Positions 1,969 through 44,619 of a stretch of DNA of 44,682 nucleotides are shown here, one piece after another. Both the position numbers and the translations under genes were made by a program. Below the pieces are notes generated by a model. It saw only the letters and a list, made by a program, of their open reading frames with translations. It was not told the DNA's origin and made no database searches. The DNA lies in the sequence record PX123008.1. The stretch is one strand, 5' to 3'. Position 1 is the first letter of the stretch. The number at the start of each line of letters is the position of its first letter. This DNA is from a phage.

Positions 1969-3489
1969 ATGACCGTTAACGTTGACAACCAGCACCCACT
2001 TTATGCGCGCATCGCGCCAGAGTGGAAAATGATCCGTGATTGTGTAGCAGGGGAGCGCGCCGTGAAGGCGTGCGGCCCTTTGTACCTGCCTCATCCCGCC
2101 AGTGGCGACAATACTGACCCGAAAGCACGGGCGCGGTATAAGGCGTACAAGCAACGCGCTGTATTCCTGAACGCCACCGCCCGCACACTTAACGCGCTGT
2201 TAGGCGTCGCCTTTGCTAAACCGGTAAGTCTGGACCTTTCCGGGGCGATGGCTGACCTGATTGACGACGTTGACGGCAGCGGTATGCCTCTGCCGCAACT
2301 CCTGCGCGGTGCAATGTCGGAAGTTCTGCAATCGGGCCGCGCAGGCTTTATGGTGGACTACGACCGCCAGGCCCACTTTGATGAACTGGGTAATGTAGTG
2401 CCGCAGACCGCCGCCGAGATGGCTACACACCGCCCGCTTATCCGCCTGTATACGGCAGAGCAGATCATCAACTGGCGGCAGACCCACGGTGTTGACACGC
2501 TAATCGTGCTGAAGGAAACGGACGAAATCAGCACCGAAGACCCGGACGACTTCGCAAACCACGAAGTAACCATCTGGACCGAGCTTCGCATGATTAACGG
2601 TGCGGCACACGCCCGCCGCTGGTTTTATAACGCCGACACGTCCGAGGTGCAAATGGACTTGCCGCGTGGATTTACCCGCACCGACCTTGTGCCGCTGGTG
2701 GATGCTGCCGGTAAAGCGCTGACACAGCTTCCGTTTTGCTGGTGTGGCGCGGTGGACAACAACGCAACGCCTGACGCCGCTCCGCTGGCGGATATTGCGT
2801 CCATCAACATTAAGCACTACAACGCCGAAGCGGACGTCGCCGAGATCGCGCACATCGTGGGCCAGCCTACCCTGGTTGCGACGGGCTTGACTCAATCATG
2901 GGCTGACAAGAACCTGAAGGGAGGCATTGCCCTCGGTGCGACTAAGGGCGTTATTCTGGGTCAGAACATGGACGCTAAACTGATTCAGGCGGAGGAGCGC
3001 AACTTGTCGGTTGCACTGTGTGAGCGTCGCGAATTGCAAATGGCTAAACTGGGCGCGGCCCTGGTTGAGAAGGGGACTGCACCTAAGACGGCAACCGAAG
3101 CGGCCTACGATGCGCAGACTGATAACAGTATCCTGTCGCTTATTGCCGGTAACGTTGAGAAGGCTTTCAACCGTGCGCTGCAAATCGTCCAGCTATTCAC
3201 GGGCGACACCGCCGACCAGCGTGTGACGCTGAATAAGTTCTACACCGAAATCACGGTTGATGCGCAGCTTATGACCGCGATGATGTCGGGTGTGCAGACG
3301 GGTACGGTCCGACTGGCTGACTTTATCAAGTGGATGATGGCGCAGGGCGTCATCGACGACTCGCAAACCGTCGAGCAGGTGGAAGACGAATTGCGAAATC
3401 AGAATCCATTGCCTCAAATGTCCCCTGATGCGGTAGAATCTACCGAAGAAGACCCGGACAAGGTAGCGGACAATGGCGAAGACAATTAA
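1969..3489 (+). CDS. portal protein
   Basis: 506 aa directly after TerL with AAGGA RBS; acidic C-terminal tail; size and position typical of portal. Confidence 0.8.
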   Translation: MTVNVDNQHPLYARIAPEWKMIRDCVAGERAVKACGPLYLPHPASGDNTDPKARARYKAYKQRAVFLNATARTLNALLGVAFAKPVSLDLSGAMADLIDDVDGSGMPLPQLLRGAMSEVLQSGRAGFMVDYDRQAHFDELGNVVPQTAAEMATHRPLIRLYTAEQIINWRQTHGVDTLIVLKETDEISTEDPDDFANHEVTIWTELRMINGAAHARRWFYNADTSEVQMDLPRGFTRTDLVPLVDAAGKALTQLPFCWCGAVDNNATPDAAPLADIASINIKHYNAEADVAEIAHIVGQPTLVATGLTQSWADKNLKGGIALGATKGVILGQNMDAKLIQAEERNLSVALCERRELQMAKLGAALVEKGTAPKTATEAAYDAQTDNSILSLIAGNVEKAFNRALQIVQLFTGDTADQRVTLNKFYTEITVDAQLMTAMMSGVQTGTVRLADFIKWMMAQGVIDDSQTVEQVEDELRNQNPLPQMSPDAVESTEEDPDKVADNGEDN

Positions 3490-4576: not shown

Positions 4577-4877
4577 ATACGCGGCGATCGGATTGGTAAT
4601 AGGTCTGGCGGTTGGATTCTGGCAGGGTGATTCCTACCGCACTGGCGTTGAGGCGAGAGCGGCGCAAGAAGCGCAAGCGAAAGCCCAACGGCAGCAAACT
4701 AAGGTTGTCGAGGGGGCAGTGCAGGCCGAACAGGCCCGCGATGTGGAATACCGGACTATCACGAAAGAGGTTGTGAAATATGTTACGCGTCCTAACCGTC
4801 CTGATTGCAGTTTTGATGCTGAGCGCGTGCGGATCAAGCAAAGCGCCATTGATGCCGCTAACCGAGTCGGTCTATAG
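4569..4877 (+). CDS. i-spanin (Rz-like)
   Basis: GTG start with AGGGGG RBS; N-terminal TM segment (IKYAAIGLVIGLAVGFW) followed by a charged coiled-coil-like periplasmic domain; fully overlaps the o-spanin ORF in another frame. Confidence 0.55.
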   Translation: MIKYAAIGLVIGLAVGFWQGDSYRTGVEARAAQEAQAKAQRQQTKVVEGAVQAEQARDVEYRTITKEVVKYVTRPNRPDCSFDAERVRIKQSAIDAANRVGL

Positions 4878-5010
4878 ACCTCCTTGCACCTTTGAGAATG
4901 CCTCGGCAGATCCAGACGAAGACTTGCTGGTTGATGTTAAGAATATGGAGTGTGGTGCTAAGCTAAGGGCGCAAGTGCTGGAGTTGCAGAAAATAATTCG
5001 GGGGCTGTGA
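4780..5010 (+). CDS. o-spanin (Rz1-like outer-membrane lipoprotein)
   Basis: 76 aa; signal peptide with lipobox LSAC; proline-rich mature part; starts inside the i-spanin ORF in the +1 frame. Confidence 0.6.
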   Translation: MLRVLTVLIAVLMLSACGSSKAPLMPLTESVYRPPCTFENASADPDEDLLVDVKNMECGAKLRAQVLELQKIIRGL

Positions 5011-5025
5011 TGGCCCCCTTTTTTG
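5000..5025 (+). terminator. rho-independent terminator
   Basis: GGGGGC-tgtgatg-GCCCCC hairpin followed by TTTTTT; the o-spanin stop codon lies in the loop. Confidence 0.65.
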
Positions 5026-5295
5026 TTAGCGCGGAATGCCGCAAATCTCGTTTAACGTCTTCACGTCCAGCGCCACCGCCGTGGACTTCGGCTTGTCCGG
5101 GTAGGGAATGAACTGTTCCACTTCAGGCCACGCCTTGATCAGCTTCTTATCGGTATTGTGCAAATCCAGCACGCCGGTAACTGTTAGTTTGAACGCGTCA
5201 TACTTCGCACGCAAATCGCGGCGGGCCTTGTCGTTACGGTCCAGGCGCTTACAGAAGTCGTGGTCCGCCGGGTAGTCTATACGACCGCGTGGCAT
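5026..5295 (-). CDS. hypothetical protein; possibly the C-terminal part of the upstream ORF, see (AT)5 finding
   Basis: ORF MPRGRIDYPADHDF...; frame junction with ORF 5277..5792 coincides with an (AT)5 tract. Confidence 0.4.
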   Translation of the reverse strand: MPRGRIDYPADHDFCKRLDRNDKARRDLRAKYDAFKLTVTGVLDLHNTDKKLIKAWPEVEQFIPYPDKPKSTAVALDVKTLNEICGIPR

Positions 5296-5792
5296 ATATA
5301 TATCGGCAGCGCTTTCCCGTCGTCGTCGACTTCGCACACTGACGCTAACAAAATTTCCTCATACCCTGGCACAATATCGCCGAGATCGGGAGACAGTTTA
5401 TTCATGTATTTATACTCCCAGTATCCGCGATGTGCTCGGAATCGGTGTCCGTCTCCGCTCAATGACACGGTACGGACGTTTCCGCCTGCGTTGATTTCGA
5501 AAGTGGCGTCGTAAACGCTGCCTATACCATATGGGTTGTCGGCGTCATGTCTATACGTCGCCTTATTGGTGTACACACAGACGCCGTATATCTGCGACGG
5601 GTCATTGCCGATTGCATAAATGCGCTCACGTAGCTCGGCGAACGTATGAATGCCTTCCGGCATACAGTCCAGCGTAATGGCGTACGCCAGATTTCGAGAG
5701 TCCATCATGATTGATTTGGCTTCGGTCGCGATTTCGTGGTCGCGCAGGATGTTAGCCAGAATCTGGTTTTTAATGTCTTTCGTCAGTCTCAT
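5277..5792 (-). CDS. hypothetical protein
   Basis: 171 aa, ATG with GAGGA RBS 8 nt upstream; no recognisable motif. Confidence 0.5.
   Translation of the reverse strand: MRLTKDIKNQILANILRDHEIATEAKSIMMDSRNLAYAITLDCMPEGIHTFAELRERIYAIGNDPSQIYGVCVYTNKATYRHDADNPYGIGSVYDATFEINAGGNVRTVSLSGDGHRFRAHRGYWEYKYMNKLSPDLGDIVPGYEEILLASVCEVDDDGKALPIYICHAVV
5294..5303. repeat. (AT)5 dinucleotide tract at the junction of two ORFs
   Basis: atatatatat read directly; removing one AT unit would fuse ORF 5277..5792 to ORF 5026..5295 in frame. Confidence 0.9.
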
Positions 5793-5874
5793 TTTTGTGT
5801 CCTCGTTGTTGGGGCTTTCGCCCCTGTTGGTTTAGTTAAACTTGATGTTGCCGCCAATAGGCTGCTTTTGTTAG

Positions 5875-6393
5875 CTACAAACGCATCGGCATGATAACAA
5901 GGAAGGCACCGCCTTTGAACAGCACACGTGTCGCCTTGTCTACTCCCTGAAATTCCAGTTTTAAGCTATCAAACTTACGGTCGAACAATTTAGCAATTTT
6001 GCAGGCGTCGGACAGGTATGCCCCGGCAAACCCTATAGCCTCCACTTTAGCGCTGTCAAAAGACGTAACTCTACGCCAGTCTGGGAATCGGCCGTCTATG
6101 ATCTCTACGGGTATGGTACCGATTAATACGTCTTTACTATCAAAGAACGCAGCGGAGGTGCCGTCTATGTTGCAATATTCGAATTTAGTAGGTAAGCGTC
6201 CTTTAATTGCTACTATTTTACTTTCACCTTCGGGAACAACCGCGGACCCGCAGAACAAGCGATGACCGTCGGTGGCCACAATGAATCCTTTCTCGTCGAA
6301 AAATACACCGTTCAGATAGTATCGCACGTCATTAGTTGCGGCGCACATCATAGCGGCTTTAAGATCAGCATAGTTAACTTTAATCATTGTCAT
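5875..6393 (-). CDS. truncated beta sliding clamp (DnaN domain II-III) homologue
   Basis: 173 aa from ATG with GAGGA RBS; motifs DVRYYLNGVFF, VATDGHRL, DGRFPDWRRV and C-terminal VIMPMRL match E. coli DnaN residues ~145-366 as recalled; no domain I. Confidence 0.7.
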   Translation of the reverse strand: MTMIKVNYADLKAAMMCAATNDVRYYLNGVFFDEKGFIVATDGHRLFCGSAVVPEGESKIVAIKGRLPTKFEYCNIDGTSAAFFDSKDVLIGTIPVEIIDGRFPDWRRVTSFDSAKVEAIGFAGAYLSDACKIAKLFDRKFDSLKLEFQGVDKATRVLFKGGAFLVIMPMRL

Positions 6394-6416
6394 TTCCTCG
6401 TTGTTGGAGTGCAACC

Positions 6417-6446
6417 AATATAGTGCAACCAATACGAGGATTGCAA
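6417..6446 (-). promoter_or_regulatory. sigma70-like promoter (TTGCAA-N18-TATATT) for the clamp-like gene, with ATTGGTTGCAC motif copies
   Basis: hexamers read directly on the minus strand; downstream leader GGTTGCACTCCAACAACGAGGA then ATG at 6393. Confidence 0.5.
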
Positions 6447-6453
6447 GCGAATT

Positions 6454-6481
6454 TTGCGATTATTTTTATCGCTGATAATAT
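6454..6481 (+). promoter_or_regulatory. putative sigma70-like promoter for the scaffold/capsid operon (TTGCGA-N16-TAATAT)
   Basis: hexamer matches read directly ~55 nt upstream of the scaffold start. Confidence 0.35.
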
Positions 6482-6536
6482 TAGAAGCGTGAAGTCGAGC
6501 GGGTGGCCTGCTCTGCCACAATCCCAGGGGGATAGC

Positions 6537-7241
6537 ATGAAACTTACTAAAGCAGAATATGACGCGTTGCCGGAAGGTATGAAGGCGCTTTTTGTTGCCG
6601 ATGGCGACGGGTATAAATCAACTTTCATGACCGCAGAAGAAGTACAGGCGGAAATCAAGGGTCTGAAAGACAACAACGCGAAGCTGGTGAGCGAGAAGAA
6701 AGCAGAAGCTGAACGCCGCGCCGAAGCCGAGCGACTTGCGAAAGAGAAAGAGGAAGCCGCTGCGCGCAAAAATGGCGACCTCGAAGCGATCGACAAGTCC
6801 TGGAAAGATAAGTTTGCTAAACACGAAGCAGACACATCGGGAAAAATCGAAGCCTACCGCAAGCAGATCCACGATCTCACCATCGGCAGCGCTGCCAAAG
6901 ACCTGGCATCGAAGCTGTTCGGTAAGAATGCTGGGATCATGCAACGTCACGTAATGGACCGCCTGACGCTGGAAGACGGCGAAGACGGCAGCTTGAAAGT
7001 GCGTGTCTTGCAGGATGGCAAACCGTCCGCGCTGACTATGGAAGAGCTTGAGAAAGAGTTCCGTAATAACGCCGATTTTGCATCCGTCCTGGCTGGCACG
7101 CCAGCCGGTGGCGCGCCTAGCAAACCGACGCAGGTTGTCGAAGATGTGAAGTCGAAAATCACTATGGGCCACAGCTTCGGTATCACTGACCTTACGAAAC
7201 AGGCAGGTGAAATCATCGCTAAGATGGGCGACGACGAGTAA
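6537..7241 (+). CDS. scaffolding protein
   Basis: 234 aa from ATG with GGGGGA RBS; highly charged, alanine/lysine/glutamate-rich coiled-coil-like protein directly upstream of the major capsid gene. Confidence 0.6.
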   Translation: MKLTKAEYDALPEGMKALFVADGDGYKSTFMTAEEVQAEIKGLKDNNAKLVSEKKAEAERRAEAERLAKEKEEAAARKNGDLEAIDKSWKDKFAKHEADTSGKIEAYRKQIHDLTIGSAAKDLASKLFGKNAGIMQRHVMDRLTLEDGEDGSLKVRVLQDGKPSALTMEELEKEFRNNADFASVLAGTPAGGAPSKPTQVVEDVKSKITMGHSFGITDLTKQAGEIIAKMGDDE

Positions 7242-7338
7242 GCAGATTGCCCGCGAAAGCGGGCAATTTTGCGAGCGCGTAAATCTAAGGTAACATTAAC
7301 GTCACTGGGCGAATGCTCACAACTCAAAGGATTTCGAT

Positions 7339-8439
7339 ATGTCTTTAACAGTGTTCCAGCGTAAACTCGTTACCGCGGTTACGCAAATGATCCCCGACAA
7401 CCTGAACGTTTTCAACGCCGCCGCCAATGGCGCTGTTGTTCTCGGTACTGGTGAAGTGCTGAAGGATGTTATTGAGAAAATGTCCGTAGGCTTGATCGCC
7501 AACCTCGTTACCGACCGTAACGCCTACGCCCCTGTCGGCACTCCGGCAACCGCGAAAGTGCTGGCGCGTATGCTGACCAACTCGGTTAACCTTTCCGCTA
7601 AAGTAGGTCCGGTAGCAATCACGAAGGCCATGATGGCTAAGATCGAAACCAACGTTAACAGCGTTGCGGCTGAGATTGCGGCACAGGCGACTCAAGCGAT
7701 TATGCTGCATTACCTGAAAGCGGGTATCGGTGCGGGTAAAGCGGCGATCGAGAGCAACAACAACGCGGTATACACCCAACCGGCGCGCGTTGACGGCGTT
7801 GGCGGTCGTACCTTCCCGACCCTGGCTGACTTCCCTCTGGCGGCTTCTAAGTTCGGCGATCAGGCGTCTTTGATTAAGTCCTGGTTTATGGACGGCGTTA
7901 CCTGGGCAAACTTCATCGCGTACCAGGCGCTCCCTTCCGCTGAACAGGTATTCGCAATTGGCGATCTTCAGGTAATGGGTGATGGCCTGGGCCGTCGTTT
8001 CATTATCTCCGATGCCGCTGCCGATGCTATGGGTGCTGGTAAAATGCTTGGTCTGGTACCGGGTGCGGTTGCAGTTACCACCAACGGCCTCGATATGCTG
8101 GCGCAGGAAAAAGGCGGCAACGAGAACATCGAACGCTGGTGGCAGGGCGAGTTCGACTTCAACGTGGCGGTTAAAGGCTACCGTCTGAAGGCGTCCGCTC
8201 GTACCCCGATCGAAGGCATTCGCTCGTTCAAGCTGTCAGATATCACCACTAAGGACAACTGGGAGCTTGACCAGGGCCAGGTAGACAACGCACCGGCAAC
8301 CGTGCAGGACGTGGGCGCTGTTGGTGATGGCGATACTAAAGGCCGTCGTAAGACCCAGGCCGCACAGGAAGTGCCGACCCGTCACATCAAGGAAACGGCG
8401 GGCGTACTGGTTACGCTGACTGCGACCAAAGCGTCCTGA
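7339..8439 (+). CDS. major capsid protein
   Basis: 366 aa after the scaffold gene with AAGGA RBS; followed by a strong terminator; position and size typical. Confidence 0.75.
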   Translation: MSLTVFQRKLVTAVTQMIPDNLNVFNAAANGAVVLGTGEVLKDVIEKMSVGLIANLVTDRNAYAPVGTPATAKVLARMLTNSVNLSAKVGPVAITKAMMAKIETNVNSVAAEIAAQATQAIMLHYLKAGIGAGKAAIESNNNAVYTQPARVDGVGGRTFPTLADFPLAASKFGDQASLIKSWFMDGVTWANFIAYQALPSAEQVFAIGDLQVMGDGLGRRFIISDAAADAMGAGKMLGLVPGAVAVTTNGLDMLAQEKGGNENIERWWQGEFDFNVAVKGYRLKASARTPIEGIRSFKLSDITTKDNWELDQGQVDNAPATVQDVGAVGDGDTKGRRKTQAAQEVPTRHIKETAGVLVTLTATKAS

Positions 8440-8458
8440 TCTACGCACATCCCAAATG

Positions 8459-8482
8459 GGCGGGCTTATGCCCGCCTTTTTT
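8459..8482 (+). terminator. rho-independent terminator after the capsid gene
   Basis: GGCGGGC-ttat-GCCCGCC hairpin followed by TTTTTT. Confidence 0.65.
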
Positions 8483-8497
8483 ATAGGAGTGAATACA

Positions 8498-8998
8498 ATG
8501 TATGGCGACCCGCAAACCTTTGTCGATTATGCCGCTGCGCGAGGCGTTGAAATTACGCTGGGCGATGCGACGCGACACCTTACCATCGTTAATGACTTCC
8601 TTAACGGCATCAACTGGATCGGCGAACAGGCGGACCAGACAGGAATAGACGCATGGCCCCGCATCAACTACCCATCGGACGGGAAGCCGGTGCGCGACAC
8701 GCTAACCGAAGTCGTGGCGGTAGTGCCTGTCGGGCAAATCGTAGACTTTGCATCAATCCCCGTTGCCGTTGAGCAAGCCGTTTACCGGCTGGCGATGTTG
8801 GTGGCAGACGAGATCGATATTTCTCCGGTCGGCGATGGTAAAGAGACTATCCGCGAAACGGTCGGCCCGATCACGATGGAATACGACCCGGCGTCGATTG
8901 GTAGCGGGGTGTCGTTTCCGTGGTGGGATGGCTTGTTAGGGCACTGGGTTGATTCTGGCGGCAACGCCGCAGGCAATTTCGACGTATTCAGGGGGTAA
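8498..8998 (+). CDS. head-tail connector / head completion protein (tentative)
   Basis: 167 aa from ATG with AGGAG RBS; first gene after the capsid terminator; no specific motif recognised. Confidence 0.45.
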   Translation: MYGDPQTFVDYAAARGVEITLGDATRHLTIVNDFLNGINWIGEQADQTGIDAWPRINYPSDGKPVRDTLTEVVAVVPVGQIVDFASIPVAVEQAVYRLAMLVADEIDISPVGDGKETIRETVGPITMEYDPASIGSGVSFPWWDGLLGHWVDSGGNAAGNFDVFRG

Positions 8999-8999
8999 T

Positions 9000-9119
9000 A
9001 TGAATCCTGCATTACTCGCGGCGATTATCGCCGCCAACACTAAACGGCAACCAGAACAACCGGAGCCAGAACCAGTACCACCGGCACGGGAGAGTGAAGA
9101 AGATGGCGGGCTTTAATTA
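9000..9119 (+). CDS. small Pro/Glu-rich ORF (39 aa), doubtful
   Basis: ATG preceded by GGGGG; MNPALLAAIIAANTKRQPEQPEPEPVPPARESEEDGGL; overlaps the start of the next gene. Confidence 0.25.
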
Positions 9120-9456
9120 CGCAGGATTAAAGCGGAAAGTGAATCCGCTGATTAAAAAATTCGGCATGACCGTTACGGTTACGCGTCCGGGATCGGTTGA
9201 CCGCGTAGACGGCGAAGAAGTTGTCATCCCACCGACCTCGTTTGACGTCATCGGTCTTCGCGAGGAGTACAAGCCGAGCGAGATCGACGGAACGCGTATC
9301 GTTGCCGGTGATGTGAAGTTTTTATGTTGGGCGGTTGAGCAATTGCGGGTGGGCGACCTGGTTAACCTGAACGGTGCAGACTACCGGGTCGTCAATCCTA
9401 ACCCACTGCAACCGGCAGGCACGACCATGCTGTTTCAACTACAGCTAAGGGGCTAA
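9103..9456 (+). CDS. head-tail joining protein (tentative)
   Basis: 118 aa; position in the neck module. Confidence 0.45.
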   Translation: MAGFNYAGLKRKVNPLIKKFGMTVTVTRPGSVDRVDGEEVVIPPTSFDVIGLREEYKPSEIDGTRIVAGDVKFLCWAVEQLRVGDLVNLNGADYRVVNPNPLQPAGTTMLFQLQLRG

Positions 9457-9457
9457 C

Positions 9458-10051
9458 GTGGCTGAGGTCTACTCATTCGCCGCCACCATTGCTACGTGGG
9501 TGGATAAGACGAAGGAGAACAACGATAAGGCGGTGCGGGCGTACGGTATGCAAATACTAGGACGCCTGATCGAGATCTCCCCGGTAGGCGATCCCCGCCG
9601 GTGGAAGATTAACAAGGCTTACGCGCTTGCACGCGAACACGCGAACAAGGTGAACGCCGCACAGCGCCGCAAGAATGGCGGCAAACTGAAGCGTGGGCAG
9701 AAGAAGCACGCCAGTGTGCTCGTCTCATTCAAGACTAAAAACGGCAACGTCACGTTCCGCCAGCGTGGCTGGGCTGCGAAGAATTACACCGGCGGACGCT
9801 TCCGGGGAAACTGGCAGGTTACGTTCGACCGCCCGGCTGTAGGCGCTATCGACCGCGTGGACAAGGCCGGAACGGCAACATTAGCCGCAGGGCGTGAAGT
9901 GCTGGCACATTACGATTCAGGTGAATACAGGTCGATCTGGTTTACTAACAATGTGCCGTATGCGCAGCGACTTGAGTATGGTTGGAGTAAACAAGCGCCC
10001 GCGGGGATTGTTCGCGTCGTAGCGGCAGAAATTAATTCGAAGGTGAAATAA
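9458..10051 (+). CDS. neck / tail completion protein (HK97 gp10-like, tentative)
   Basis: GTG start with AAGGGG RBS; 197 aa; position between head-tail joining and tail tube genes. Confidence 0.45.
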   Translation: MAEVYSFAATIATWVDKTKENNDKAVRAYGMQILGRLIEISPVGDPRRWKINKAYALAREHANKVNAAQRRKNGGKLKRGQKKHASVLVSFKTKNGNVTFRQRGWAAKNYTGGRFRGNWQVTFDRPAVGAIDRVDKAGTATLAAGREVLAHYDSGEYRSIWFTNNVPYAQRLEYGWSKQAPAGIVRVVAAEINSKVK

Positions 10052-42582: not shown

Positions 42583-42996
42583 ATGTTAAAAAGTATTCTT
42601 GATCATAACGCCGACGCGCTCGCCGCGCTGGCTAAAACCAAAGACCCAGGCGCACGCGCTATTGTAGCGGATACGATCAGCCATGCGGGGGTCTTCGACG
42701 CGAAGTTACCCAGCCCGCCGGAAAGTAAGCCGGTGACAAGTGCAACCGTAACTATCACACCGGAATCCGCCGCAGTTGGTGCGAAGGCCACCGCTTCGGT
42801 TGCGGTACAGCCATCCGACGCAACTAACAAGGCCGGGTCGTGGGTGTCGTCGAATCCTGCCTGCGCGGCAATCGATCAGACTACCGGAGAAATCACAGCC
42901 CAAACGGAAGGTAGCGCCCACATCTTTTGGGTGGCATCCGACGGCAGCGGGGTGCTAGCGTCCGCCATCTTCACCGTAACGGGGGCAGAAGAATAA
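42583..42996 (+). CDS. bacterial Ig-like (Big_2-type) domain protein
   Basis: 137 aa; C-terminal ~80 aa resemble a Big_2 fold (TVTITPESAAVGAKATASVAV...SWVSSNPACAAIDQTTGEITAQTEGSAHI). Confidence 0.55.
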   Translation: MLKSILDHNADALAALAKTKDPGARAIVADTISHAGVFDAKLPSPPESKPVTSATVTITPESAAVGAKATASVAVQPSDATNKAGSWVSSNPACAAIDQTTGEITAQTEGSAHIFWVASDGSGVLASAIFTVTGAEE

Positions 42997-43003
42997 AACC
43001 ACA

Positions 43004-43028
43004 AGCCCGGTTAATTCCGGGCTTTTTA
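43004..43028 (+). terminator. rho-independent terminator after the Ig-like gene
   Basis: AGCCCGG-ttaatt-CCGGGCT followed by TTTTT. Confidence 0.65.
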
Positions 43029-43093: not shown

Positions 43094-43174
43094 TGGCACG
43101 TAATGATATTTGGGTATTGGCGATCTGGTCAGCCGCAGCATTTATCGGTATGGTTATTTGCGAATTGCTATAAC
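43094..43174 (+). CDS. small hydrophobic peptide ORF (26 aa), doubtful
   Basis: ATG 9 nt after GAGAGGAG; MARNDIWVLAIWSAAAFIGMVICELL. Confidence 0.3.
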
Positions 43175-43234
43175 CCGCCACAATAGGGACCGTGGTATAT
43201 TGTCCTCGGTCCCATAATCAGGAAGTGGATTAAT

Positions 43235-44377
43235 ATGCACCCGCAAACTAAAATCACCGACGAGCAATTGATTGCTGAATTACAATCCGGCGCTACATCG
43301 AAAGAGATTTCTAAGAAGTACGGTTTATCCCTACGAAACGTCTACATGCGCAAAGCACGCCTGTCGAAAAAGGGGATCGGGCACGGTAATGATGCCGTAA
43401 TCCGTAAGCGCGTTGCCGATGGCTTCGGCGTTAAGCGCGTATCCGCCCTGGTGCGCGGCAATGGTGAAGAGGTCATGTCGTGGGTCATCACCGAGCAGGA
43501 CAAGGAGCGCCAGCTTGAAGCAATGCGCGCCGTTGTCGAGGGCATGAACAGCGAAATCACACCGGCAGCACCCGTAAGCGCCCCGCCTATCCCGATCCAG
43601 GCACTTGACCTACTCAACCTGTACACCGTGTCAGACTTCCACCTGGGCATGTTGGCCTGGGGCGAGGAGACTGGCGAAGACTGGGATATGGCGATTGCCG
43701 AAGACCTGTTCTACCGCTGGTTTGTCGAAGCCTTCGCACGCGCACCGGACGCAGGCACTGCCGTAATTAATATTCTCGGTGATATGGCGCACTTTGATAG
43801 CCTCGATGCCGTCACCCCAGCCAGCGGGCACGTACTGGACGCGGATACTCGCTACCAGAAGCTGGTCCGCTACATGATTCGCATGGTGCGCAACGTGGTA
43901 GACCTGGCGCTGCAAAAACACCACAAAGTCAAACTGCTAATCGTCCAGGGTAATCATGACGAATCGGGTATGATTTGGCTTGCTGAGATGTTCAATACTC
44001 TGTACGAGAACGAGCCGCGCGTCGAGGTGGACACATCCCCGGATGTGTACAAAATGGTGCAGCACGGTAAAACAACGCTGTTCTTCCACCACGGGCACAA
44101 AGCACGTTTTGACGCTATTGAAACCGTCATGATTTCCAAATTCAGACAGGCTTTCGGGGCCAGCGAGTACAGCTACGCGCATGTAGGCCACTTGCACCAC
44201 CAGAAGATTGTAGAATCCCGCAACATGATTGTTGAACAACACCGGACCCTCGCAGCGAAGGACGCCTATGCCAGCCGCGGCGGTTGGATGTCCGGTCGTA
44301 GCGCCAACGTCATCACCTATAGCGCCAACTACGGCGAAGTAGCGCGCTTAACCATTAGCCCGGAAATGTTGAAATGA
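43235..44377 (+). CDS. metallophosphoesterase (calcineurin-like) with N-terminal HTH-like segment
   Basis: 380 aa, AGGAAG RBS; motifs SDFHLG, GDMAHFD, QGNHDE, HHGH, GHLHH; N-terminal SKEISKKYGLSLRNVYMRKARL. Confidence 0.6.
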   Translation: MHPQTKITDEQLIAELQSGATSKEISKKYGLSLRNVYMRKARLSKKGIGHGNDAVIRKRVADGFGVKRVSALVRGNGEEVMSWVITEQDKERQLEAMRAVVEGMNSEITPAAPVSAPPIPIQALDLLNLYTVSDFHLGMLAWGEETGEDWDMAIAEDLFYRWFVEAFARAPDAGTAVINILGDMAHFDSLDAVTPASGHVLDADTRYQKLVRYMIRMVRNVVDLALQKHHKVKLLIVQGNHDESGMIWLAEMFNTLYENEPRVEVDTSPDVYKMVQHGKTTLFFHHGHKARFDAIETVMISKFRQAFGASEYSYAHVGHLHHQKIVESRNMIVEQHRTLAAKDAYASRGGWMSGRSANVITYSANYGEVARLTISPEMLK

Positions 44378-44586
44378 TTAGACAAGTATTCATGAGCACG
44401 CAGGCGGACCGCCTGAAGGAACTACGCAAGCAACTCGAAGGCTTGCGCCGATTCGAACGAACGGCAGCGGCGATAGGCATGTCTATCAGCGAGAGGATCG
44501 AGATACTGACTCAAATACGCTACACAGAAGGCGCCATAAGCGAAGTAGAAAGCATGTTAACCCGATACTACGGGCGCGCCGTTTAA
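44374..44586 (+). CDS. hypothetical protein
   Basis: 70 aa, ATGA overlap; followed by a terminator. Confidence 0.45.
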   Translation: MIRQVFMSTQADRLKELRKQLEGLRRFERTAAAIGMSISERIEILTQIRYTEGAISEVESMLTRYYGRAV

Positions 44587-44593
44587 CCCTCCT

Positions 44594-44619
44594 AGCCCAC
44601 CGATTTGGTGGGCTTTTTT
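44594..44619 (+). terminator. rho-independent terminator
   Basis: GCCCACC-gattt-GGTGGGC followed by TTTTTT. Confidence 0.65.

Follow-up and report, generated by a model that had tools for sequence, protein, structure and literature searches.

A helix-turn-helix metallophosphoesterase gene of the PHROG 704 / T1 gp16 family in a Dhillonvirus-like phage genome, and its likeness to Mre11/SbcD nucleases

Several phage metallophosphoesterases (MPEs) are stand-alone proteins that act on or with DNA. For example, Gp48 of mycobacteriophage A10ZJ24, a Bxb1 gp47-type protein, has phosphodiesterase activity and damages host DNA (PMC12287305), and T5 A1 is, according to its record annotation, required for the breakdown of host DNA and a partner of the DNA-binding protein A2. 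Each of the characterised phage MPEs compared here falls in a PHROG of its own (T4 gp47 in 100, T5 A1 in 1745, Bxb1 gp47 in 221, and lambda NinI in 246), and all of these are distinct from PHROG 704, the family of coliphage T1 gp16 (E 7.2e-155). Here we describe a PHROG 704 gene in the phage sequence record PX123008.1, a stretch of 44,682 nucleotides (the window) that is a complete, closed, Dhillonvirus-like phage genome. From its sequence, the product is predicted to consist of two modules, an N-terminal helix-turn-helix (HTH) joined to an Mre11/SbcD-like metal-dependent phosphoesterase domain. The reading that we favour, at roughly an even chance, is that of an Mn-dependent nuclease or phosphodiesterase that is tethered to DNA, is of the Mre11/SbcD structural type, and acts without Rad50 in phage DNA metabolism.

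Under this proposal, an HTH of the LuxR/sigma-70-region-4 type would tether the protein to DNA, and a phosphoesterase domain of the Mre11/SbcD/PolD-DP1 type, with a binuclear metal site (probably Mn2+), would cut DNA phosphodiester bonds without the help of a Rad50/SbcC ATPase. Expression would come from a small terminator-bounded unit that ends the replication (delayed-early) block, and the enzyme would most likely trim or open DNA ends or intermediates in phage replication and recombination, late and before packaging; host DNA degradation is a possible variant of the same activity. We put this proposal forward because the active site is conserved, motif I is gp47-like, an HTH is present, and gene order is polar, and because DNA end-processing neighbours (ligase, HAD-PNKP, NinG/Rap) and a replication-module position in an E. 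coli prophage are found in other lineages. It is from the reading frame, the domain architecture, the active-site conservation, the structural neighbourhood, and the cross-lineage position that we infer the DNA substrate, nuclease activity, metal identity, expression timing, and biological role. The gene and the parts of its product are as follows:

43235–44377, + strand: HTH-MPE gene, ATG start, 380 amino acids (aa); PHROG 704 / T1 gp16 family
43221–43226, + strand: Shine-Dalgarno-like AGGAAG, read from the sequence, 8 nucleotides (nt) before the ATG; kept in the Dhillonvirus upstream alignment
43247–43378, + strand: predicted N-terminal tri-helical HTH of the LuxR/GerE/sigma-70 region 4 type (residues ~5–48; helices 9–17, 22–29, and 33–44)
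43421–43609, + strand: family-specific connector (residues ~63–125), with a beta-hairpin (64–73, 79–88), a helix (90–105), and a variable linker
43610–44374, + strand: MPE catalytic domain (residues ~126–380), with five motifs and without a capping domain

The open reading frame (ORF) is a real gene and not a chance frame, because the PHROG 704 profile ("DNA repair exonuclease") matches it over its full length (E 1.9e-160; residues 5–380 against profile positions 2–390 of 390) and because relatives found by tblastn and HMMER are widespread. The gene was present in 2055 of 50,697 phage records by tblastn, with matches in Dhillonvirus, Jerseyvirus, Drexlerviridae, Klebsiella siphophages, Vibrio, Campylobacter, and Ruegeria phages, and one cyanophage, while an exhaustive HMMER scan gave 4669 representatives at 50% identity, of which 1137 fell below 1e-30. 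Among Drexlerviridae, 508 of 522 genomes carry it, phage T1 included. Metagenomic members lie on phage-sized contigs, and the E. coli chromosomal copies lie in prophages. The homologues of Vibrio phage VP-1 and Campylobacter phage F361 also match the PHROG 704 profile, and a T1-like (Hanrivervirus) homologue is 48.5% identical to the query. T1 gp16 itself is homologous over its full length, has the same five motifs, and shares the architecture of HTH, hairpin, and MPE domain.

Near-identical genes have already been deposited, so the window itself adds nothing new: the DNA of the region is 91–94% identical to many Dhillonvirus genomes, and the Dhillonvirus proteins are 96–98.7% identical to the query. 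Their deposited names vary among 'DNA repair exonuclease', 'putative phosphoesterase', 'HTH luxR-type domain-containing protein', and 'hypothetical protein', and some homologues bear plainly wrong names ('UDP-N-acetylmuramoylalanyl-D-glutamate--2,6-diaminopimelate ligase', 'DNA polymerase II', 'oxidoreductase', 'DNA methylase', and 'Rrf2 family transcriptional regulator'). The gene is thus a very common, inconsistently annotated member of a known phage family, and membership in PHROG 704 names that family without explaining its function. The family is among the larger phage protein families without a tested function, and its definition gives a well-posed experimental target: an HTH joined to an Mre11-like MPE, without a capping domain or a Rad50 partner, closing the replication module or filling the lambda ninI slot, and accessible in easily handled coliphages such as T1 and the BASEL Dhillonvirus isolates.

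A first-pass annotation made from the sequence had placed the gene on the + strand at these coordinates and described it as a calcineurin-like phosphoesterase, and both statements hold. Each quoted motif was located in the protein (DFHLG at 134–138, GDMAHFD at 182–188, GNHDE at 239–243, HHGH at 285–288, and GHLHH at 318–322), and together they supply the metal ligands: motif I, D134-x-H136-L-G; motif II, G182-D183-x2-H186-x-D188; motif III, G239-N240-H241-D242; motif IV, H286; and motif V, G318-H319-x-H321. The superfamily pattern DxH / GDxxD / GNH[DE] / H / GHxH is present with D134, H136, D183, N240, H241, H286, H319, and H321 intact, and the query has the beta-sandwich MPE fold. In 135 representatives at 50% identity, D134, H136, G182, D183, T194, N240, H241, H286, G318, and H321 were 100% conserved and H186, D188, D202, and H319 were 95–96% conserved, and an alignment of 101 sequences gave the same picture of catalytic conservation. 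With the metal-ligand and transition-state residues invariant or nearly so, the sequences indicate that the binuclear metal site, and therefore catalytic activity, is under strong selection.

Conservation also extends beyond the generic motifs. A loop specific to the family, VTPxSGHxLDxDxR, occupies residues 193–206, and the family-specific positions (G77, W83, T194-P195, D202, D204, R206, and the DAYAxRGGW region) are all present in the query and are invariant or at least 90% conserved in the alignments of 101 and 135 sequences. In the connector, G77 (91%) and W83 (93%) reach invariance in some family alignments. The hairpin and helix (residues 63–105) belong to the conserved core of the protein, because a 317-aa Campylobacter homologue that has no HTH retains the hairpin with G77 and W83.

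Domain searches with the single protein returned sub-threshold matches only, both in Pfam and in NCBIfam (Metallophos_2, 23.1 bits against a cut-off of 27; GerE, 15.2 bits against a cut-off of 23.5), and the only matches of a phmmer search of the PDB, to designed repeat proteins, were spurious. For this reason, the domain calls are based on the family and not on the single protein. For the catalytic domain, Pfam Metallophos and Metallophos_2 fall just below the gathering score in the query and above it in some relatives. For the N-terminus, where the first-pass annotation had read SKEISKKYGLSLRNVYMRKARL (residues 22–43) as a likely HTH, AlphaFold2 model 2 contains three helices (9–17, 22–29, and 33–44) with a predicted local distance difference test score of 88–92. 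A profile built from 50 diverse N-termini matched LuxR/GerE-type DNA-binding domains in the PDB (RhlR, 4.7e-7; DesR, 5.4e-6; NarL, 5.5e-5; GerE, 1.2e-4), bearing out that call, and it also matched sigma factors (about 2–4e-4) and LysR HTHs. Pfam searches of the 50 members found HTH_1 in 19, Sigma70_r4_2 in 16 (best 5.6e-11), and GerE in 10 (best 1.4e-9); the LysR-type HTH_1 was matched as often as the other classes, which leaves the subclass between LuxR/GerE, sigma-70 region 4, and LysR. Longer family members carry a second HTH instead of another kind of domain. At the level of the family, these profile matches identify the N-terminus as a genuine DNA-binding-type HTH of the LuxR/sigma-70-region-4 type, and the fold is thus one that binds DNA, not a non-DNA-binding one.

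Structural comparison placed the model nearest to DNA-processing enzymes. The highest figures were obtained with S. aureus SbcD (14.8) and T. maritima Mre11 (14.6), and six further Mre11/SbcD entries gave 12.1–13.1; the PolD DP1 exonuclease gave 13.8 and the Pol delta B-subunit 13.7, while the P. putida nuclease MPE (9.4) and PP5 / calcineurin (9.3 or less) lay at the low end. The motif I DxHLG of the family matches that of T4 gp47 (DWHLG), and hhalign brought motifs I–V of the family and gp47 into register, weakly (E 0.021). Unlike Mre11, SbcD, and T4 gp47, the query carries an N-terminal HTH and the VTPxSGHxLDxDxR loop, and it does not match PHROG 100, the gp47 family, which gp47 itself matches at 2e-141. 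The likeness to PolD DP1 and the eukaryotic polymerase B-subunits is one of fold only (13% identity): the query lacks an OB fold and a PolD catalytic subunit partner, and the phage polymerase is annotated as family-A-type. Neither a TIGR04123 match nor close structural similarity linked the query to the ligase-associated PdeM / P. putida MPE. The first-pass annotation had offered an Mre11/SbcD-like nuclease as one option; the likeness of fold and the DxHLG motif stand, and family membership, the capping domain, and the Rad50 partner do not. Thus, the catalytic domain resembles the Mre11/SbcD core and plausibly works like it but lies outside that family, nor does the protein fall in any well-characterised family of the housekeeping type.

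The other DNA-acting phage MPEs differ from the query family. Bxb1 gp47, A10ZJ24 Gp48 (PHROG 221), and T5 A1 (PHROG 1745) have no fused HTH, unlike the query, and hhalign of the query family against Bxb1 gp47-type and T5 A1 MPEs produced partial, non-significant alignments only. The T5 A1/A2 pair was considered as an unfused equivalent and rejected as a homologue, A1 being aligned at motif III only (hhalign probability 0.9%) and A2 not being alignable with the HTH profile; the pair is retained as an analogy.

The position of the gene was compared across lineages. In Dhillonvirus the gene adjoins the terminase, and the same holds for one unrelated metagenomic phage, whose Nu1/GpA terminase is of the lambda type. 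In T1 and Hanrivervirus it comes after helicase and Dam genes and ahead of the lysis cassette (in T1, MPE at 40.8 kb and terminase at 8.4 kb), in Jerseyvirus it belongs to an island on the opposite strand amid the tail genes, in Jedunavirus it is the last gene of the primase operon, in a Vibrio Ackermannviridae phage it lies near a primase gene, and in Campylobacter phage F361 a DNA ligase gene stands immediately upstream. In an E. coli prophage (locus L103 of our survey, 4665–9559), the homologue P0176 lies between an O-like/HTH_36 initiator-like gene and a DnaB-type helicase gene. This position is the place of lambda P in the replication module, and the initiator side of the same locus also has a 330-aa insertion with faint homing-endonuclease-like matches.

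Among 80 IMG/VR loci, gene order was polar: a primase or helicase gene on the same strand lay upstream in 13 loci and downstream in none, TerL or portal on the same strand (within 6 kb) lay downstream in 25 and upstream in 2, and NinG/Rap was upstream in 8. Because only a few seed proteins were used in this phmmer survey, these counts are lower bounds, and ORFs in other frames that overlapped the MPE gene with lysin or HNH seed matches were excluded as artefacts. The lineage contexts and the polar order place the family at the 3' end of the replication or delayed-early block, by nucleic-acid processing genes, and not in a packaging module.

The first-pass annotation had located the gene just upstream of the terminase genes and suggested a DNA-end processing enzyme linked to packaging. 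The location is correct once the genome is closed into a circle, with TerS at 21–572 and TerL at 572–1957 of the window; the link fails as a property of the family, the Drexlerviridae, Jerseyvirus, and E. coli prophage copies being away from the terminase. A packaging-associated nuclease that helps the terminase to recognise or cut pac or cos sites is consequently very unlikely in our estimate. HNH proteins assist HK97-type terminases, and such a role would suit both the placement immediately upstream of TerS/TerL in Dhillonvirus and in the unrelated Nu1/GpA phage and the 25 loci with TerL or portal downstream; however, the adjacency is lost in T1, Hanrivervirus, Jerseyvirus, Jedunavirus, the Vibrio Ackermannviridae phage, and the E. 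coli prophage, the Q and lysis genes mostly stand in between, and a downstream terminase bias is expected for any gene that ends the early block.

The MPE stop overlaps the start of the next gene in 56 of 92 loci, and that next gene varies by lineage: Phage_antitermQ PF06530 (48 and 41 bits), a HAD-PNKP phosphatase (73 and 59 bits), HNH, or Lar. A conserved two-gene module of MPE and a small downstream protein was rejected on this ground, since the overlapping gene differs between lineages. In lambdoid-like contigs the MPE gene lies between NinG and Q (PF06530), with its stop overlapping the Q start (Q lies downstream in loci L041, L045, L047, L050, L051, L056, L057, L059–L061, L063, L067, L076, and L089), and in lambda the NinI stop overlaps the Q start in the same manner (L019:1225–2510). 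With NinG upstream and the Q start overlapped downstream, the family takes the lambda ninI slot in these contigs, as if one MPE had replaced another that is not its orthologue.

This slot, together with the MPE fold, is what could favour a Ser/Thr (or Tyr) protein phosphatase equivalent to lambda NinI (lambda-PP), and a Ser/Thr phosphatase was also among the options of the first-pass annotation. NinI shares the MPE superfamily with the query and carries the phosphoprotein phosphatase (PPP) signatures GDLHG, GDLVDRG, and GNHE, whereas the query has DFHLG, GDMAHFD, and GNHD in place of GDxHG, GDxVDRG, and GNHE. Neither profile nor structural comparison put the query among the PPP (lambda-PP / NinI) enzymes, and hhalign of the family against NinI left nothing in register. 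A protein phosphatase is therefore close to refuted, and we give it hardly any probability.

In nine loci (L026–L028, L031, L033, L034, L037, L039, and L043; one Jerseyvirus-like clade plus L043), a HAD-PNKP-type polynucleotide 3'-phosphatase gene lies immediately downstream. In L043, the HAD-PNKP gene is in turn followed, about 1.2 kb downstream, by a ligase-like ORF, and such a neighbourhood of MPE, HAD-PNKP, and ligase suggests a cassette for end healing and sealing. HNH genes lie downstream of the MPE gene in 7 of the 80 IMG/VR loci, and HNH homing-endonuclease genes are often found directly downstream in phages that are unrelated to one another, as in T1, Jerseyvirus KE06, cyanophage Pam1, and a Vibrio phage (L009:42028–42510; L004:5159–5659; L008:5225–5941; L021:4510–5019); in KE06, the HNH gene splits the MPE gene from the usual small downstream ORF.

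Several observations weigh against a DNA-tethered, Mre11-type enzyme. The PHROG/Pharokka label 'DNA repair exonuclease' is a remote-homology annotation only, and a full-text literature search found no biochemical, genetic, or other functional study of any family member. Sequence links to Mre11/SbcD are non-significant (E about 1.5 in a PDB profile search; probability 2% by hhalign, the T4 gp47 alignment included). The Mre11 capping domain is absent, since the protein ends 58 residues past motif V; a Rad50/SbcC-type gene is not annotated in a 92.7% identical Dhillonvirus genome, and none adjoins the MPE gene in any of the contexts read with annotation or Pfam labels. In addition, conservation along the protein is lowest in the HTH, which is sub-threshold when the query is searched alone (GerE, 15.2–17.2 bits against 23.5) and is missing in some homologues, such as the 317-aa Campylobacter phage protein, so that DNA tethering may not be essential. 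Finally, small-molecule phosphodiesterases follow closely in the structural comparison (MJ0936, 13.7; LpxH, 13.3; Vps29, 13.0), and a first, poorer structure model had MJ0936 in joint top place.

This last comparison bears on a different function, that of an anti-defence or signalling phosphodiesterase, the product of an accessory counter-defence gene, that would degrade a small nucleotide (a cyclic mono-, di-, or oligonucleotide, Ap4A, or an alarmone). We hold it to be rather unlikely. A fused DNA-binding HTH has no obvious use for a soluble small substrate, the top structural matches are nucleases, and near-universal persistence in Drexlerviridae resembles a core and not an accessory function; PADLOC gave no match, and the characterised mycobacteriophage MPE with a counter-defence role (Gp48) belongs to PHROG 221 and itself acts on DNA.

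If the Mre11-type enzyme that we favour is indeed guided by its HTH, a stronger proposal follows, to which we attach a small chance: the family would be an unrecognised class of Rad50-independent, HTH-guided Mre11-like nucleases that work on particular sites or structures of phage DNA at the transition from replication to packaging. Such nucleases might open or trim intermediates, or make the ends that start recombination-dependent replication. Lambda-PP would then have been displaced by them from the ninI slot in many lambdoid phages, and T1 gp16 and its thousands of relatives would represent a new core DNA-processing function of siphophages.

In the window, the gene occupies a transcription unit of its own between the lysis and terminase genes. 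The signals and neighbouring genes are:

43003–43024, bidirectional by scan: upstream intrinsic terminator hairpin that ends the lysis unit (-15.0 kcal/mol, z -3.86)
43094–43174, + strand: hydrophobic 26-aa ORF (MARNDIWVLAIWSAAAFIGMVICELL) that has a strong ribosome-binding site (GAGAGGAG); it follows the upstream terminator and precedes the MPE gene
43186–43192 / 43207–43213, + strand: inverted repeat GGGACCG / CGGTCCC, bracketing TGGTATATT
43193–43201, + strand: candidate extended -10 element TGGTATATT, ~35 nt upstream of the ATG
44374–44586, + strand: 70-aa ORF, PHROG 20931, function not assigned; its start overlaps the MPE stop (ATGA)
44594–44614, + strand: downstream intrinsic terminator that closes the unit before TerS (-15.5 kcal/mol, z -3.71)
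21–572, near the window start: TerS
572–1957, near the window start: TerL
1969–3489, near the window start: portal
42583–42996, + strand: 137-aa ORF, Ig-like, between the endolysin gene and the upstream terminator

The two hairpins confirm the terminator-bounded unit that had been proposed in the initial annotation: z scores were taken against shuffles, 0 of 200 of which folded as well, terminators are annotated at the upstream hairpin position in relatives, and in relatives TerS directly follows the downstream one. Like the query, T1 gp16 forms a terminator-bounded unit adjoining the lysis cassette; in T1-like phages the gene stands before the lysis genes and far from the terminase, whereas in the query Dhillonvirus it stands after the lysis genes and before TerS.

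Upstream of the gene, CCGTGGTATATTG, which contains TGGTATATT, is conserved in six Dhillonvirus upstream regions, and the core CCGTGnTATATTG is kept in all six of the aligned regions, two of which lack the small ORF. A consensus scan reported a promoter-like match (TTGACT-18-CATACT) after the upstream terminator and missed TGGTATATT, because the latter has no -35 element. Judged from the sequence, TGGTATATT and the inverted repeat may form an MPE promoter with an operator for the protein's own HTH.

These elements suit a transcription regulator whose HTH binds phage promoters and controls the late switch or its own expression, with the MPE domain as a sensor or accessory module, a function that we consider unlikely. 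The HTH class is typical of transcription activators, the gene directly precedes the late genes (Dhillonvirus), the lysis genes (T1-like phages), or Q, in one context it follows a NusG-like gene, and the inverted repeat brackets a conserved -10-like element. However, conservation is highest at the catalytic residues and poor in the HTH recognition helix, some homologues have no HTH at all, and the lambdoid members already carry Q. Regulation and nuclease activity are compatible and not mutually exclusive. The probability left beyond the favoured DNA-processing enzyme and the four alternatives belongs to explanations not considered here.

Among the neighbours, the 70-aa downstream ORF is Dhillonvirus-specific and not a family-wide partner; it shows weak similarity to the Jerseyvirus downstream ORF. 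The 26-aa ORF is kept, with mostly third-position changes, in four of six aligned Dhillonvirus sequences and is absent from two, and one relative has a different, overlapping 35-aa ORF annotated in its place. A phosphatase gene also features in the description of Ksap1, the KpAvs2 trigger of Dhillonvirus, as 'next to a phosphatase'; its identification with the present MPE was rejected, as that phosphatase adjoins a methyltransferase gene and is, by synteny with the annotated genome of the Dhillonvirus McMelon, probably a polynucleotide kinase/phosphatase gene elsewhere. In the 137-aa ORF, the first 48 residues match PHROG 11068 and the remainder is Ig-like (BIG2-type), as on capsid and tail decoration proteins; the McMelon counterpart is only about 60 aa long, and the Ig-like part is therefore variable.

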